Assembly (NCBI GenBank): GCA_023250515.1
Contig: JAHFAO010000002.1
Location: forward strand, 2,361-66,360
Direction: 5' to 3'
DNA: 64,000 bases
DNA from: Deltaproteobacteria bacterium
GTDB lineage: Bacteria; Desulfobacterota; Binatia; UBA9968
The notes under the pieces are model-generated. The model was given only the letters and a program-made list of their open reading frames with translations, was not told the DNA's origin and ran no database searches. Positions within the stretch are counted from its first letter, which is position 1. Each line of letters begins with the position of its first letter. Shown here piece after piece: positions 27,509 to 40,219 of this stretch. Made by a program: the position numbers and the translations under genes.

Positions 27509-28621
27509 TTGAACGGAAAAAGGGATTATTACGAGCTGCTTGGCCTGAATCGAAGCGCTAGTGGCGAGGAGATCAAGAAAGCCTACCGCAAGCTGGCTCT
27601 AAAGTATCATCCTGACCGAAACCCTGGCGACAAACGGGCAGAAGAGCAATTTAAGGAGATTTCAGAGGCCTATCAAGTCCTCACGGATCCGGAGAAGAGA
27701 GTTCAATACGATCAGTTTGGACACTCAGCCTTTGGAGACGGAGGTCCGTTCAGAGGAGGGTTTGATTTCGCGACTGGTTTTGAAGATATCTTTGGAGATA
27801 TCTTCGGAGAGTTTTTTGGAGCAGGGACAACCAGGCGCCGGACCCGAACCAGGGGGGAAGATCTTCGCTATAATCTTGATATTACTTTTGAAGAGGCGGT
27901 CCTTGGAACTGCGAAGAAGATTAAGATCCCTAGGCAGGCCCCCTGTGATAGCTGCCGTGGAAGCGGCTCCAAACCAGGTTCTTCACCTCGAACCTGCCCT
28001 GCATGCCGAGGCAGGGGTCAAGTTAGCTTCCAACAAGGTTTCTTCAATGTCTCCCGGACCTGCAGCCAATGCCGCGGCGAGGGAACCACTATTAGCGATC
28101 CCTGTAGCTCCTGCAACGGCGCTGGACGGGTGCGCAAGCTTCACACGCTCAGCGTCAAGATTCCTCCCGGGGTGGATACCGGCTCTCGGCTTAAGCTCAG
28201 GGGAGAGGGAGAGAGCGGCACCTCGGGTGGGCTTCCAGGGGATCTCTATGTGGTGATTCAGGTAGAGCCTCATCCCCTCTTCATCCGTGATGGTCTGGAT
28301 ATTATCTGCGAGGTTCCTATTAGCTTTGTTCAGGCAGCCTTGGGGACGGATATCGACGTGCCTACCTTGGAGGGAAAGGTCAAAATGAAGATTCCCCCGG
28401 GGACCCAATCGGGAAAAGTCTTCCGCTTGAAAGGAAAGGGCGTTAGAGATGTCCAGGGGTATCATCAGGGAGATCAACACGTTAGGGTGATTCTGGAAAC
28501 ACCCACGCATCTTACACCGCGACAGAAGGAGCTTTTAAAAGAGTTCGCGGAACTTGGGGGACAGGAAGTCCACCCACTGTCGAAAGGTTTTTTTGACAAA
28601 GTCAAGCAAATATTTGGATAA
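27509..28621 (+). CDS. dnaJ: Co-chaperone DnaJ (Hsp40)
   Basis: J domain 'DYYELLG...YHPDRNP', a G/F region and four CxxCxGxG repeats. TTG start. Confidence 0.95.
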
Positions 28622-35227: not shown

Positions 35228-35280
35228 TCGGCTAATCCTCCTAAGAACTCTCAGTAGTCTGCTTGACACACCGTCGGACT

Positions 35281-35303
35281 TCATGTAACCATTGGTTACA
35301 TGA
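35281..35303. promoter_or_regulatory. 23-bp perfect palindrome, candidate operator of the LexA-like repressor
   Basis: TCATGTAACC-ATT-GGTTACATGA has 10-bp perfect arms. The right arm contains the repressor's own ATG (35300). TTGACA at 35263-35268 lies 17-18 nt upstream of a weak -10. Confidence 0.5.
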
Positions 35304-35845
35304 GGCCTAAAGAATTTAAGAAAATACGCCGAAAAGGCCTGGGTCTCACCCAACAAGAGTTGGCTTCAAAGCTCCATACGACGCGAATGACTATTACCCG
35401 ATACGAAGGCGGGACGAGGCGCATTCCCGGCGTGGTAGAAGTGGCCATCAAACAAATGGCTTTATCGCCGCGCATCCCCTTGGTCGGAATCGTGGCCGCC
35501 GGGAACCCTATAGAGCCCGTGCCTCAGACAGAGTTAGTTGATGTCCCCGCATCGATGGCGCGAGGTGGAGAAAATTTTGCTCTCAGCGTCACGGGGGAAT
35601 CCATGCGCGATGAGGGAATTTTGCCGGGTGACCTCGTGATTGTTCACAAACAGTCCACGGCCCAAAACGGGCAGACGGTTGTTGCCCTGGTAAACCGGGA
35701 AGCCACCATCAAAAAGTATTACCAGAAAGCAGATTGCGTTGAGCTTCGTCCCGCTAACCCTGTGATGAAACCAATCATTGTAACGCCTGAAGATGAGTTC
35801 AGAATCCAAGGGGTTGTTGTCGGAGTCATTCGCTACTGTAAGTAG
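35300..35845 (+). CDS. LexA-like autocleaving repressor with XRE-type HTH (HTH_XRE + peptidase S24)
   Basis: N-terminal 'LGLTQQELASKLHTTRMTITRYEGG' (XRE HTH). LexA-type cleavage site 'VAAGNP', Ser 'GESM' and Lys 'ATIKKY'. Confidence 0.8.
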   Translation: MRPKEFKKIRRKGLGLTQQELASKLHTTRMTITRYEGGTRRIPGVVEVAIKQMALSPRIPLVGIVAAGNPIEPVPQTELVDVPASMARGGENFALSVTGESMRDEGILPGDLVIVHKQSTAQNGQTVVALVNREATIKKYYQKADCVELRPANPVMKPIIVTPEDEFRIQGVVVGVIRYCK

Positions 35846-35860
35846 CGTTACCCACATCCG

Positions 35861-37153
35861 ATGAGGCACCCTGTCAGATTTGAAATGGATCGGCAGATTG
35901 TTTGTTTCCAAATCCCATCCTTTGGAATCGCTCTAGCTCGGCTGAGGAATCCCTCCCTCAGGGACTGGCCGGTGGCGATCGCGCCGACGCATGTCCCGCG
36001 CGCAGTCCTGTATGAGGTATCGAGCGAAGCGAGGAAGAATGGCCTCTCTCCTGGCATGCCAGTGGATCAAGCCCGCTGGCTTTGCTCATCCCTGCAACTC
36101 ATCCCTCCCGATCCCCGAGGCGTCCGTTCGGCGGACCAATATCTCCTCGAAGTGAGCGGCCGATTCGCGCCGGTTTGGGAGCCGGTCAGTCCTGGCCATC
36201 TTTATTTGGATCTGACCGGGACAACCCGTCTTTTCGGCCGCGCTGTTGATACCGCGGCCCGAATTGAACGCGAGGTCATGGAGCGCCACGGCTTGAGCGG
36301 CGTCATGGGTCTAGGAAGCAACAAGCTCGTTTCCGGCATTGCCGCTACCCTCGTTCAACCCCTGGAACTCTACGATGTTAGTCCGGGCTCGGAGAGAACA
36401 TTTTTGGCACCCTTGCCCGCGACCCTGCTCCCGGAATTCGGCCGCCTATATGCCGCAAAAACACAAGAGGTCTTAGCCACTCTGGACGATCTCAATCTCA
36501 AAACACTCGGGGAGATTGCTGAGATTCCACTCTTCCATCTCGAACTCGTCCTCGGACCTCAAGCGAGACTCCTGCGTCAATGGGCTCTCGGTATCGATCC
36601 TTCCCCCGTATGGCCTCCGGTTCGGCGTCCCTCTCTTGAAGTCTCCCACATCTTGGATACGGACGAAGTAGATGATGACCGATTGCTTGGCCTTCTGTAC
36701 AGCCTATTGGAAAGGCTGTGCCAGAAGCTCCGACGACAATTGCAGGCTTGTCGGCGTCTCACGCTCACCTTGGGGCACAGCGATGGCATTGAGATTACCA
36801 AGCATCAAACTTTCAATCCCGGCACTTACTGGGAGGCTGATATCTATCCTCGCCTGCAGCAGCTCTTCATTCGTTCCTTTCAACGCCGGGTTCGACTCAG
36901 GAGCGTGAGGATCGGTGCGGAGGCCCTGGGGATCGTGGAGAAACAGTTGTCTCTTTTCGAAGAAGAACCATCTGAGGAACAGATAAAGCATGTCCGGAGG
37001 CAACGCCTTGCTTTGGCGCTCGATCGGTTGCGCGATCGCTTCGGCGACCGCGCGGTCTGGTGGGGGCACAGGCAGTCCGGAGTTTCGGGTTGCGAGTTCC
37101 GAGTTAAAAACTCATACCCGAAACTCGGTACTCCAAAACTCGTAACTCACTAA
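35861..37153 (+). CDS. imuB: ImuB-like Y-family polymerase homologue (catalytically inactive)
   Basis: Y-family fold blocks are present ('LYLDLTGTTRLFG', 'GLGSNKLVSGIAA'). The DinB catalytic 'DMD' and 'DE' positions read 'QIP' and 'GH'. Lies between the LexA-like gene and dnaE2. Confidence 0.75.
   Translation: MRHPVRFEMDRQIVCFQIPSFGIALARLRNPSLRDWPVAIAPTHVPRAVLYEVSSEARKNGLSPGMPVDQARWLCSSLQLIPPDPRGVRSADQYLLEVSGRFAPVWEPVSPGHLYLDLTGTTRLFGRAVDTAARIEREVMERHGLSGVMGLGSNKLVSGIAATLVQPLELYDVSPGSERTFLAPLPATLLPEFGRLYAAKTQEVLATLDDLNLKTLGEIAEIPLFHLELVLGPQARLLRQWALGIDPSPVWPPVRRPSLEVSHILDTDEVDDDRLLGLLYSLLERLCQKLRRQLQACRRLTLTLGHSDGIEITKHQTFNPGTYWEADIYPRLQQLFIRSFQRRVRLRSVRIGAEALGIVEKQLSLFEEEPSEEQIKHVRRQRLALALDRLRDRFGDRAVWWGHRQSGVSGCEFRVKNSYPKLGTPKLVTH
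37080..37150 (+). repeat. Hairpin plus tandem-repeat element inside the imuB 3' end
   Basis: An 11-bp perfect stem GAGTTTCGGGT (37080-37090) / ACCCGAAACTC (37116-37126) with an inner GAGTT/AACTC stem. Followed by tandem AAACTCGGTACTCC / AAACTCGTAACTCA (37121-37149). Confidence 0.7.
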
Positions 37154-37165
37154 TTAAAACCGACC

Positions 37166-40100
37166 ATGTCCTCCTTTATCCATTTGCATGTCCACTCACA
37201 CTACTCGGCGATGCGCGGCGTCTCATCCTTGGAAGCGCTCTGTCAGGCGGCTCATGCCCAAGGTGCGGATACCCTTGCCTTGACGGACACCAACGGCCTG
37301 TATGGGGCCATCCGGTTTCTAGAGATTGCCCGTCAGAACGGGCTGAGACCCATTCTGGGCGCGGAGCTGACCCAAGGGTCTCATCGCGCCGTACTTGTAG
37401 TCAAAACCGCTGAGGGGTATGCCAACCTCTGCTGGCTTTTATCGGCTCGACATTGCGATGACTCCTTTGACTTTATCAGCGCGATGGCCCAACACCGGAA
37501 GGGCTTGTTTTTGCTCTCCGATGATGCGCAGGCCCTCACGGCCTGGAAAAAAGAGTCGCCCGAGGACCTTTATGTAGAGCTAACGCCCGGCGCAATGATG
37601 CATCAAGCCTTGGCTTTCAGCCGCCGGGCCAAGCTCCCACCCGTAGCCACCAATAGAGTCCATTTCGTGAGTCCCGATGAATTCCTCCTCCATCGCCTCC
37701 TCCGGGCCATCGCCTTGAATACTACGCTCTCGCGCCTTCCAAAGGCTGCCTGCTGCCTGCCCCATCACTGGCTTGCTCCAAAGTCGGTTTTAGAGCGAAA
37801 GTTCCCTCATGTCCCCGAGGCCCTTGCGAATACCAGACGCATTGCCGAGGCATGCCAGACCGAATGGAATTTTAAGGAGACAATCTTCCCGGCGTTTCGC
37901 CGGTTGCCGGACAGCCAGGCCTTCACGTTACTTCGAGACAAGACTTATGCCGGCGCCGCCTGGCGCTATGGGGTTATAAGCCCCGCGGTTCGAGAGCGGA
38001 TCGAGCACGAGTTGGCCATTATCCAAAAGAAACGTTTTGCCCACTACTTTCTAGTGGTGGAGGAGATCGTCCGACACGCGCCTCTGACCTGTGGCCGGGG
38101 TTCTGCCGCCGCGTCGATTGTGGCCTACTGCTTGGGAATTACTCATGTGGACCCAATCCGGCATCGGCTCTTCTTTGAACGCTTTCTGAATACCGGGCGA
38201 AACGATCCCCCAGATATTGACATTGATTTTCCCTGGGATGAACGGGACTCCATTCTAGACTGGGTCTTCGCTCAATATGGGGCTGACCGCGCCGCCATGG
38301 TGGCGAATCAAAACACCCTGGGACTCAGGGCCGCCATCCGTGAGGTGGCGAAAGTCTATGGGATGATCCCGGAGGAGATCGGCCGGCTCGCGCCGCGCAT
38401 CCTGCGACAAATAGATCTATTACGGTTGGCAGAAAGCACGCCTTCCCGCGCCTGGGCAGAGTCTCTTTGCCGAGACATCCAGATCAAGGAGCCGTGGCCC
38501 GAGATTCTCAACCTGGCCGTCCAAGCGGAAGGTCACTTTCGGCATCTCGCCCTTCACTGTGGGGGCATTGTGATCGTCCCGGATGAGATTCGAAGGTACG
38601 TGCCAGTGGAGATCGCGGCTAAAGGCGTCCCGGTGGTCCAGTGGGAGAAGGATCAGGTTGAAGAGGCCGGTCTCGTTAAGATCGACCTCTTGGGGAATCG
38701 CTCGCTCGCAGTCATCCGCGACGCGCTTGCGGCTATAGAACGGACCGGCGGCTACCGGCTGGACTATGCGACCTGGGACCCGCTCACGGACGAGAGGACC
38801 AAGGACCTAATCAGACGAGGAGAGACTATAGGCTGCTTCTATGTTGAGTCGCCGGCTACGCGACTGCTGCTTAAAAAGCTTTGGAACCGCATGCCAGAGG
38901 ACCGAAAGGCACAAGCGGATGTTTTTGAATACCTGGTCATGGTCTCATCTCTTGTCCGGCCTGCTGCGATTTCTTTCGTTCAGGAGTTCGTCCGGCGGGC
39001 CCATGGAGAAAGGTATCAACCCTTGCACCAGGTGTTGGAGCAGGTCCTCAACGAGACGTATGGAATCATGGTGTACCAGGAAGATGTCACCAAGGTAGCG
39101 ATGGCACTGGCAGGATTCTCGCTGGAGGATGCCGATCAGTTACGGAAGGTCCTGAGCAAAAAGCATAAGGAGCGACAGCTCAGGGATTATCGCGTCCAGT
39201 TCTACCGCGGTGCCCTGGCTCGCGGCGTGCCTCTTCCTACCATCGAGGCCATCTGGCCTATGATCATGAGCTTCGCCGGCTACAGCTTTTGCAAACCCCA
39301 TTCGGCAAGCTATGCGCAGGTCTCATTCAAGTGCGCCTACCTCAAGGTCTACTATCCGGCCGAGTTTATGGCCTCGGTCATTAGCAATGAGGGTGGTTTC
39401 TATCCGACATTCGCCTATCTCTCCGAAGCCCGCCGGCTGGGGCTAACAGTCCTTCCTCCGGACATCAACGCGAGCGACTGGGCCTATACTGGCGCTGGGC
39501 AGATCATTCGGGTCGGCTTAATGCAAATCAGAGGCCTTAAGCGCTCATTGGTCGATCGGTTGATAGCAGAGCGCAACGCGACCGGCCCTTTTCGCTCATT
39601 TCAGGACTTTTGCTCGCGAACGCGGCCTGAACCAGCCCAGGCTCGCCTCTTAATTAAAGCAGGATGCTTCGATCGGGTGTCTGAAGGACTAACGCGGCCG
39701 GCGCTCCTTTGGCGGATGTATGGCTGCCCAGATGGCCAGCTCTCTGGTACCCTCCCTATTCCTAAGGACTATTCAGAGGACCAGAAGCTTCAGCATGAGA
39801 TCGAGATCTTTGGTTTTCCTCTCAGCCGACACCCGCTGCAGCTCTACAGCCCAAATCTAGAAGGACTGCAGTGCATTCCGGCCGTGGAAATGGGTCGGCA
39901 TGGGGGGCGACATATAACGATGATTGGCTGGCTGATAACAGAGAAATTAACCCAGACCAAAGAGGGTGATCCGATGGAGTTCGTGACCTTCGAGGACACC
40001 ACAATGCTTTACGAGACCACCTTCTTCCCCGACGTCTACCGCCGCTCCTGCCACCTCCTTACCCCAAATAGGCCGTATATTTTGCGCGGTCTCGTCGAGG

Positions 40101-40219
40101 AGGAGTTCGGAGCGATCACGCTAACGGTCCGGCACATCGAGCGTCTGGATATGCGGGCTAAGAGTTGTTATGCTGACCGAAGAGAAGATTTTTCCTCTCA
40201 AGCCTCAAAATGGATTTGA
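37166..40219 (+). CDS. dnaE2: Error-prone DNA polymerase III alpha homologue DnaE2 (ImuC)
   Basis: 1017 aa. PHP domain 'FIHLHVHSHYS', polymerase core 'PDIDIDF' and a C-terminal OB domain. Shorter than DnaE1 and sits downstream of imuB. Confidence 0.9.
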   Translation: MSSFIHLHVHSHYSAMRGVSSLEALCQAAHAQGADTLALTDTNGLYGAIRFLEIARQNGLRPILGAELTQGSHRAVLVVKTAEGYANLCWLLSARHCDDSFDFISAMAQHRKGLFLLSDDAQALTAWKKESPEDLYVELTPGAMMHQALAFSRRAKLPPVATNRVHFVSPDEFLLHRLLRAIALNTTLSRLPKAACCLPHHWLAPKSVLERKFPHVPEALANTRRIAEACQTEWNFKETIFPAFRRLPDSQAFTLLRDKTYAGAAWRYGVISPAVRERIEHELAIIQKKRFAHYFLVVEEIVRHAPLTCGRGSAAASIVAYCLGITHVDPIRHRLFFERFLNTGRNDPPDIDIDFPWDERDSILDWVFAQYGADRAAMVANQNTLGLRAAIREVAKVYGMIPEEIGRLAPRILRQIDLLRLAESTPSRAWAESLCRDIQIKEPWPEILNLAVQAEGHFRHLALHCGGIVIVPDEIRRYVPVEIAAKGVPVVQWEKDQVEEAGLVKIDLLGNRSLAVIRDALAAIERTGGYRLDYATWDPLTDERTKDLIRRGETIGCFYVESPATRLLLKKLWNRMPEDRKAQADVFEYLVMVSSLVRPAAISFVQEFVRRAHGERYQPLHQVLEQVLNETYGIMVYQEDVTKVAMALAGFSLEDADQLRKVLSKKHKERQLRDYRVQFYRGALARGVPLPTIEAIWPMIMSFAGYSFCKPHSASYAQVSFKCAYLKVYYPAEFMASVISNEGGFYPTFAYLSEARRLGLTVLPPDINASDWAYTGAGQIIRVGLMQIRGLKRSLVDRLIAERNATGPFRSFQDFCSRTRPEPAQARLLIKAGCFDRVSEGLTRPALLWRMYGCPDGQLSGTLPIPKDYSEDQKLQHEIEIFGFPLSRHPLQLYSPNLEGLQCIPAVEMGRHGGRHITMIGWLITEKLTQTKEGDPMEFVTFEDTTMLYETTFFPDVYRRSCHLLTPNRPYILRGLVEEEFGAITLTVRHIERLDMRAKSCYADRREDFSSQASKWI

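Follow-up and report, generated by a model that had tools for sequence, protein, structure and literature searches.

A 64,000 bp stretch of contig JAHFAO010000002.1 (assembly GCA_023250515.1, positions 2,361 to 66,360, forward strand) from a Deltaproteobacteria bacterium placed in the Binatia was analysed and is referred to here as the window. The subject was a repressor gene whose start codon lies inside a palindrome, together with the two polymerase genes that follow it. The three genes, encoding the repressor, an ImuB-like protein and DnaE2, very probably form a self-repressed DNA-damage switch under one promoter and operator. The repressor is a chimera of an XRE/CI-type four-helix head and a LexA-type S24 self-cleaving tail. 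Comparison of sequences supports the palindrome as the binding site of this linked XRE-S24 repressor because it is conserved, because symmetric changes in its two arms track residues of the repressor helix-turn-helix (HTH), and because copies of it are found in trans. The features of the locus were as follows.

35263-35268, plus strand: -35 hexamer TTGACA of the cassette promoter, read in the sequence.
35281-35303, no strand: perfect palindrome TCATGTAACC-ATT-GGTTACATGA.
35284-35300: conserved 17 bp core of the palindrome, TGTAACC-ATT-GGTTACA.
35284-35292, plus strand: putative extended -10, TGT plus AACCAT, within the left half of the operator.
35299-35302, plus strand: predicted transcription start (C35299/A35300) and ATG, leaderless or near-leaderless.
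35300-35845, plus strand: XRE-HTH/LexA-type S24 repressor gene, 181 amino acids.
35861-37153, plus strand: ImuB-like Y-family polymerase homologue (Pfam IMS and IMS_C), 15 nt past the repressor stop.
37166-40219, plus strand: DnaE2-type error-prone polymerase, closing the cassette (Pfam PHP, DNA_pol3_alpha, finger and HHH_6).

A preliminary description of the window had reported a start-codon palindrome with 10-bp arms, a TTGACA followed by a weak -10, the lack of a Shine-Dalgarno sequence and an upstream stop, and all of these were found in the sequence. The palindrome can also be read in an alternative register with 11-bp arms centred on T35292. The repressor ATG (35300-35302) falls within the right arm. 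Upstream, the frame is closed by a TGA at 35264-35266, and no in-frame ATG, GTG or TTG occurs between it and 35300, so ATG 35300 is the start of the repressor. No GGAGG-like or purine-rich Shine-Dalgarno sequence was found ahead of this ATG. Given TTGACA, the best -10 was AACCAT (35287-35292), 18 nt downstream. A TG at 35284-35285 precedes this hexamer, which would make it an extended -10. The predicted start is 7-8 nt past the last base of the proposed -10. Most likely the mRNA starts at the AUG or one base earlier and is leaderless, which fits the fixed position of the ATG, the lack of room for a ribosome-binding site and the use of ATG as the universal start. It also fits that locus L068, the one relative with a 17-nt leader, has a clear Shine-Dalgarno sequence. 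The leader at locus L049 was 27 nt.

Perfect palindromes with arms of at least 10 bp and a spacer of 0-6 were present at two loci in the window, 35281-35303 (in two registers) and 27782-27805, where first-order Markov simulations of the window gave a mean of 0.43. By count alone the palindrome at 35281-35303 is only mildly unusual, and its significance comes from its conservation among relatives. The window held no second copy of it, as first described, the next best matches having 3 mismatches. The palindrome at 27782-27805 reads GAAGATATCT-TTGG-AGATATCTTC.

Relatives were collected by a scan with one genome per species. This gave 271 stretches with relatives, of which the best 80 were taken and 68 were orthologues. 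Nearly all of the orthologues came from metagenome-assembled genomes (MAGs) of Nitrospirales, with identities of 56-75%. Phycisphaerae matches (L082-L093) were omitted, being ordinary LexA proteins picked up by their S24 domain. From each locus the 60-120 nt ahead of the start were extracted, and 64 own-promoter sites were compared. The core TGTAACC-ATT-GGTTACA or a variant of it was observed at all 64 sites, and the same promoter and operator layout was observed in genome G023, a relative of the host. The preliminary description had staked its reading on the palindrome not being missing from orthologous cassettes, and at none of these sites was it missing. A TTGAC(A/T/G) hexamer stood upstream of the palindrome TGT at 63 of the 64 sites, and also at locus L015, about 290 bp upstream. 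The gap between the -35 and the palindrome was 14-15 nt at 61 sites, and 16 and 18 nt at two. The corresponding -35 to -10 spacing is 18 nt, or 17 nt at gaps of 14 nt. At 54/64 sites the operator ended with the A of the ATG, and at 7/64 the ATG lay 2 nt further on. Positions A2, A5 and T6 of the -10 hexamer were retained in the ACC, ACG, GACC and GACA operator variants. The spacer of 14-15 nt that separates the -35 from the palindrome varied freely while the hexamer and palindrome were invariant, which is a classic phylogenetic footprint.

Locus L015, from a Nitrospirota relative, was considered as an orthologue lacking the palindrome. This was rejected when its promoter and operator were found about 290 bp upstream with the TTGACA-N15 layout retained, an insertion of that length parting them from the repressor gene. 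The insertion (L015:2675-3003) comes after 'ATGAC' and is flanked by near-identical ACACGG(A/G)CTTGTCCC repeats. It looks like a small mobile element placed at the start codon. At locus L143 a degenerate second site, TATAACCGTTGGTAATA, was seen directly upstream of the main operator.

The operator variants were symmetric at 64/64 sites at three arm positions. Position 7 was C:G at 48 loci, G:C at 14 and A:T at 2; position 4 was A:T at 58 and G:C at 6; position 2 was G:C at 63 and A:T at 1. Position 5 was asymmetric (A:A or A:C) at 10/64 sites. The variants were observed to pair with particular residues in the head of the adjacent repressor. ACC operators pair with TTRMTITRYE-x-G-(T/M)-R-R. ACG operators pair with G-T/A/I-H-K/R after the recognition helix (14/14), where His replaces the first Arg. 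Locus L050 has an ACG operator and the His, yet an ACC-class helix, TTRMTITRYE. GAC operators pair with TRRS(I/V)IRYED (6/6), the TGTATCC operator with LKRLAVTRYE and the TATAACC operator with TTLTTIGRYE. A tree restricted to the C-terminal domain required at least two origins for the ACG operator class and one for each of the other classes.

Two genomes carried paralogue pairs. Genome G046 (L135, L137) has TGTAACC..GGATACA and TGTATCC..GGATACA operators, and genome G049 (L050, L143) has TGTAACG..CGTTACA and TATAACC..GGTTATA operators. Such pairs are consistent with regulators and operators that are mutually insulated. With at least five symmetric operator types matched to distinct recognition residues, the family offers a natural system for the study of repressor-operator divergence and insulation.

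The operator was also observed away from the regulator. Three genomes (G047, G046 and G048) have a stand-alone regulator plus a regulator-less imuB-like gene elsewhere, and in each the sequence TTGACA-N15-TGTAACCATTGG(A/C)TACA was found 50-85 nt upstream of the regulator-less gene. This is the arrangement expected of a trans-acting repressor. At about 15 loci the regulator and operator had no polymerase gene within 3 kb of them. In five large related genomes, operator sites with at most one mismatch occurred only at promoters of regulators or imuB-like genes, one copy in genome G002 excepted. This second G002 operator (ATGTAACCATTGGCTACAT; L097:1470-3016) has a degenerate -35, TTGCCC, and is followed by an IS91-family transposase (Y2_Tnp and Zn_Tnp_IS91). 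The extra operator probably remains from a polymerase operon that was lost, as no imuB-like gene was found in G002. At the recA promoters of three large Nitrospirales genomes the operator was absent, the best matches having 5-6 mismatches of 14.

The host genome is a MAG of 343 contigs and 86% completeness. A single further site with one mismatch was found in it, TGTAACC-CTT-GGTTACT on contig C27 (10524-10540; L010 ~1500-1516). In 3.6 Mb, chance alone should yield about 0.2 exact 12-base matches, and a reversed control pattern gave 148 loose matches against 82 for the real operator pattern. The C27 site was therefore rejected as evidence of a wider regulon and is probably a chance match. From these searches the regulon appears to be essentially the cassette itself, with only translesion-type genes covered. 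The proposal of a dedicated regulator made at the outset gains support from this lack of another good site in the host and the five large genomes, and from the canonical lexA genes that lie elsewhere in the host.

The protein was characterised by domain searches, alignment and structure prediction. Its features were as follows.

35300-35464, plus strand: repressor HTH, residues 1-55.
35498-35503, plus strand: cleavage site A67-G68.
35600-35602, plus strand: Ser101.
35711-35713, plus strand: Lys138.

Pfam placed HTH_3 at residues 8-43 and Peptidase_S24 at residues 60-174 (E 1.4e-29). The head also matched HTH_19 and HTH_31, the HTH matches together spanning residues 8-47. The LexA winged-helix domain LexA_DNA_bind (PF01726) was not found by Pfam. 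The NCBIfam lexA model TIGR00498 scored 125.5 bits against a cut-off of 110.95 and was matched at profile positions 56-201 only. Relatives of the repressor are named 'transcriptional repressor LexA' by pipelines because this cut-off is exceeded. UmuD models scored 73 bits against a cut-off of 110, and the HTH sets the repressor apart from UmuD, which is defined by having no DNA-binding head. The C-terminal domain aligned with E. coli and Thermotoga LexA (E 1e-22 to 1e-24), and in comparison with solved structures the LexA match was confined to residues 53-178. A67-G68, S101 and K138 aligned in register with A84-G85, S119 and K156 of E. coli LexA and were invariant in 25 relatives.

The AlphaFold (AF2) model had a confidence score (pLDDT) of 87.6. 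It shows helices at residues 3-14, 18-24, 29-37 and 44-54 followed by a beta-rich domain, with nearly no linker between head and tail and no wing. The sole helix of the modelled C-terminal domain is the short catalytic-serine helix, 101-105. By Foldseek the C-terminal domain was closest to LexA, with structural similarity scores (TM) of 0.67-0.80 and 38-42% identity to E. coli LexA C-terminal domains. It was farther from UmuD' and much farther from lambda CI (17-27% identity). The full-length repressor matched the CI-type phage family phrog_4 over residues 7-179. The cleavage set and the exchange of the LexA winged helix for an XRE HTH, both read from the translation in the preliminary description, thus hold on alignment and invariance in the first case and on Pfam, TIGR00498 coverage and the AF2 model in the second.

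For the switch itself it is inferred that the repressor binds, that its cleavage depends on RecA, where transcription starts and that the three genes are co-transcribed. A repressor dimer would bind the 17-bp core and cover both the -10 and the start site. Bound there, it would keep RNA polymerase off the sole operon promoter, because the left operator half holds the -10 and the last operator base is the A of the ATG. When DNA is damaged, the Ser101/Lys138 dyad would be stimulated by RecA filaments to cut the repressor at Ala67-Gly68. Cleavage would part the head from the dimerisation domain, cooperative binding would be lost, and the vacated operator would allow the operon to be transcribed. 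The repressor would be translated from a leaderless mRNA starting at the AUG or one base before it, and fresh repressor would close the switch again once RecA activation ended. If read-through from upstream occurs, a hairpin would hide the AUG and only the promoter-proximal transcript would be translatable. A start codon inside the operator would bring repression and the starts of transcription and translation together in one stretch of 20 bp, which makes the locus a test case for leaderless translation.

Several observations weigh against such a switch. A simple sigma-70 consensus scanner called no promoter at the start of the cassette. As a plain hexamer the -10 AACCAT matches at only 3/6 positions and relies on the TGn extension. 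The co-variation of operator and head amounts to about six lineage-level switches, which are few independent events. The C27 site lies about 100 bp upstream of the gene for an ABC-type solute-binding protein. No imuB-like gene was detected in the regulator-bearing genomes G002, G004 and G050-G052, where the regulator may have a role beyond the cassette or may be a relic. As RNA, the palindrome region also forms a fold of -21.1 kcal/mol (z = -4.4) whose stem contains the AUG, and a post-transcriptional role is possible if there is read-through.

Four other explanations were weighed. By analogy with UmuD' and UmuC, the repressor could be bifunctional, its cleaved C-terminal dimer joining the ImuB-like protein and DnaE2 as the small subunit of an imuA-less mutasome. 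No imuA gene was found between the repressor and imuB-like genes. With such a repressor, one and the same cleavage would induce the polymerase and assemble it. This is judged unlikely. More likely than this is that the chimera is the only LexA-type protein in most Nitrospirales, and that the 'SOS regulon' under S24 control there is a single operon.

The repressor could instead have served a now degraded prophage or other mobile element as its CI-type immunity repressor, with the polymerases as cargo and the palindrome as a remnant phage-type operator. This concerns origin more than present function and is compatible with the switch proposed here; as a rival to it, it is improbable. The full-length match to phrog_4 (E 1.7e-25) points this way, but the C-terminal domain is far nearer LexA than CI. 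The gene is sporadic, in 1/40 relatives of the host, and its family spans phyla; against this, its linkage to the imuB-like gene and dnaE2 is stable over about 48 loci. Cassette GC content is slightly above that of the flanks and the extra G002 operator adjoins an IS91-type transposase. The neighbours in the window, however, are an HD hydrolase, the ImuB-like and DnaE2 genes and a DegT aminotransferase, along with sugar-modifying enzymes. No integrase, cro-like or phage structural gene adjoins the cassette, and there is one operator in place of a multi-operator switch.

It is very improbable that the palindrome acts as an RNA or single-stranded structure, whether as a hairpin over the start codon or as the terminator of the HD-hydrolase gene. 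Symmetric arm changes would preserve the hairpin of the fold described above as well as an operator, but the asymmetric position 5 at 10/64 sites would weaken the stem, and a hairpin does not predict variants that track the adjacent HTH residues. The HD-hydrolase gene runs in the same direction and stops 54 nt short of the palindrome. No T-run follows the palindrome, though, no terminator was called, and the element is constant although the upstream genes differ among loci. With TTGACA at a fixed 14-15 nt, the left arm lies within the promoter and so would not be transcribed from it, and the identical element and spacing recur 50-85 nt before regulator-less imuB-like genes.

Least probable of all is that the palindrome belongs to another regulator, such as the canonical LexA of the host, with the XRE-S24 protein binding elsewhere or nowhere: imuB-dnaE2 cassettes are normally under LexA control (PMC6511836, PMC3919608) and the host has three LexA winged-helix open frames, but the palindromes at the lexA promoters of contig C246 differ and none lies near the cassette (these motifs being guessed from two promoters), three large Nitrospirales genomes carry the operator with no LexA_DNA_bind domain and with the XRE-S24 protein as their sole S24 peptidase, and variation in the operator goes with the HTH sequence of the repressor linked to it.

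The distribution of the self-repressed cassette regulator was examined in 101 evenly sampled Nitrospirales genomes of at least 90% completeness; such sample counts are no proof of absence. The XRE-headed protein was found in 53/101, with two or three copies in 20 of the 53, and a canonical LexA head scored above the Pfam cut-off in 12/101. Listed Nitrospirales genomes with neither protein were small, about 1.8-3.3 Mb. Relatives of the family occurred in Nitrospirota, in Binatia and in entries labelled as Syntrophobacteraceae or Methylomirabilis. At 90% identity the family makes up more than 1000 database clusters, and those that have a name are called simply 'repressor LexA'. For the nitrite-oxidising Nitrospirales, a one-operon regulon behind the 'LexA' annotation would alter what is expected of their damage response and stress-induced mutagenesis.

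The logic of the switch is classical, while the chassis, operator and restricted regulon are new. No published description of the XRE-headed family, its operator or the leaderless arrangement was found in the literature. Canonical LexA has the same S24 Ala-Gly site and Ser/Lys dyad, and likewise has a palindromic operator on its own promoter with the logic of negative autoregulation. It differs in its winged helix (PF01726), where the present repressor has an XRE four-helix head, is shorter at 181 amino acids and has nearly no linker. To our knowledge the operator TGTAACC-N3-GGTTACA is unlike any LexA box. The regulon, apparently a single operon without recA, also lies outside what PMC8565304 counts as an SOS network.

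With lambda CI and phrog_4 the repressor shares the HTH_XRE plus S24 architecture, an operator on the promoter and, here by prediction, RecA-stimulated cleavage. It is set apart from them by the lack of a prophage context, the single operator, the low identity to CI given above and the cellular polymerase targets. The lambda cI mRNA from the promoter PRM is leaderless and starts at its AUG.

LexA2 of Pseudomonas putida is a canonical winged-helix LexA. In the operon lexA2-imuA-imuB-imuC this LexA-type repressor is co-transcribed with, and regulates, its own mutagenesis operon (PMC5261740). The two systems have in common a dedicated second LexA-type repressor beside a general LexA elsewhere. 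The P. putida operon, in which imuC corresponds to dnaE2, includes imuA, whereas the present cassette has no imuA, an XRE head on its repressor and a probably leaderless start.

The preliminary description had mentioned XRE-type non-canonical LexA proteins from Bacteroidetes, and these do exist (PMC8565304), although they form another family, distinct in motif and with a C-terminal domain that is CI-like where that of the present repressor is LexA-like. They share with the present repressor a CI-like four-helix head joined to S24, a dyad with a fixed spacer and a link to error-prone polymerases (PMC8565304). That family is restricted to Bacteroidetes, recognises GGA-N5-TTC or CTAA-N5-TTAG and has an extra C-terminal helix (PMC8565304). 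The present repressor has a LexA-like C-terminal domain with no extra helix modelled, another motif and a cassette-only regulon, and its hosts are Nitrospirota, Binatia and a few other labels; the separation is drawn from motif, structure comparison and source labels. Beside canonical LexA and the CI-derived Bacteroidetes repressors, a LexA tail re-headed with an XRE HTH would be a third route to a LexA-like switch.

HdiR of Lactococcus and Streptococcus and UmuDAb of Acinetobacter are likewise non-LexA S24 repressors of damage-inducible genes including error-prone polymerases (PMC8565304). HdiR groups with repressors of Streptococcus phages, whereas UmuDAb groups with UmuD (PMC8565304). Going by their descriptions, both differ from the present repressor, which has a LexA-type C-terminal domain and another host range. 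DdiA of Myxococcus, an XRE regulator of dnaE2, was considered as a system of the same kind and rejected; no S24 or peptidase domain is mentioned for it and it activates dnaE2.

The genes behind the repressor were conserved with it. An imuB-like gene followed the regulator in about 48 of the 68 orthologous loci, and dnaE2 downstream was also conserved. The window dnaE2 scored 590 bits with the NCBIfam error-prone DNA polymerase subfamily model, under its cut-off of 939 bits. One recA was present in the host genome and a second strong RecA-like gene was not found there. The imuA-less gene set may belong to the DnaE2B-iPolY-RecA type (PMC12926913, PMC6511836). No obvious Shine-Dalgarno sequences were seen in the gaps before the imuB-like gene (35846-35860, 15 nt) and dnaE2 (37154-37165, 12 nt).

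Among 40 host-related genomes the full-length XRE-S24 protein was found only in G023, the others matching through ordinary LexA only. In the C-terminal-domain tree the window repressor grouped with Binatia-labelled relatives, and a protein of a 'Candidatus Binatia bacterium' belongs to the 90% cluster of one flanking gene. Presence in one of 40 relatives together with canonical lexA in the host makes the cassette an extra, sporadic module. It was probably acquired horizontally by the host, and its switch runs beside a separate canonical LexA system in the same genome.

Of the three open frames with a canonical LexA winged-helix head, two form a tandem pair on contig C246, and the perfect palindromes at their promoters differ from one another (loci L003 ~1462-1481 and L002 ~1470-1496). 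One palindrome is ATATCAACA-TT-TGTTGATAT and comes right after TTGACA. The other is ATGATAACT-N9-AGTTATCAT, and its right arm overlaps the ATG of the gene. From this overlap the second C246 lexA gene may also have a leaderless, operator-embedded start.

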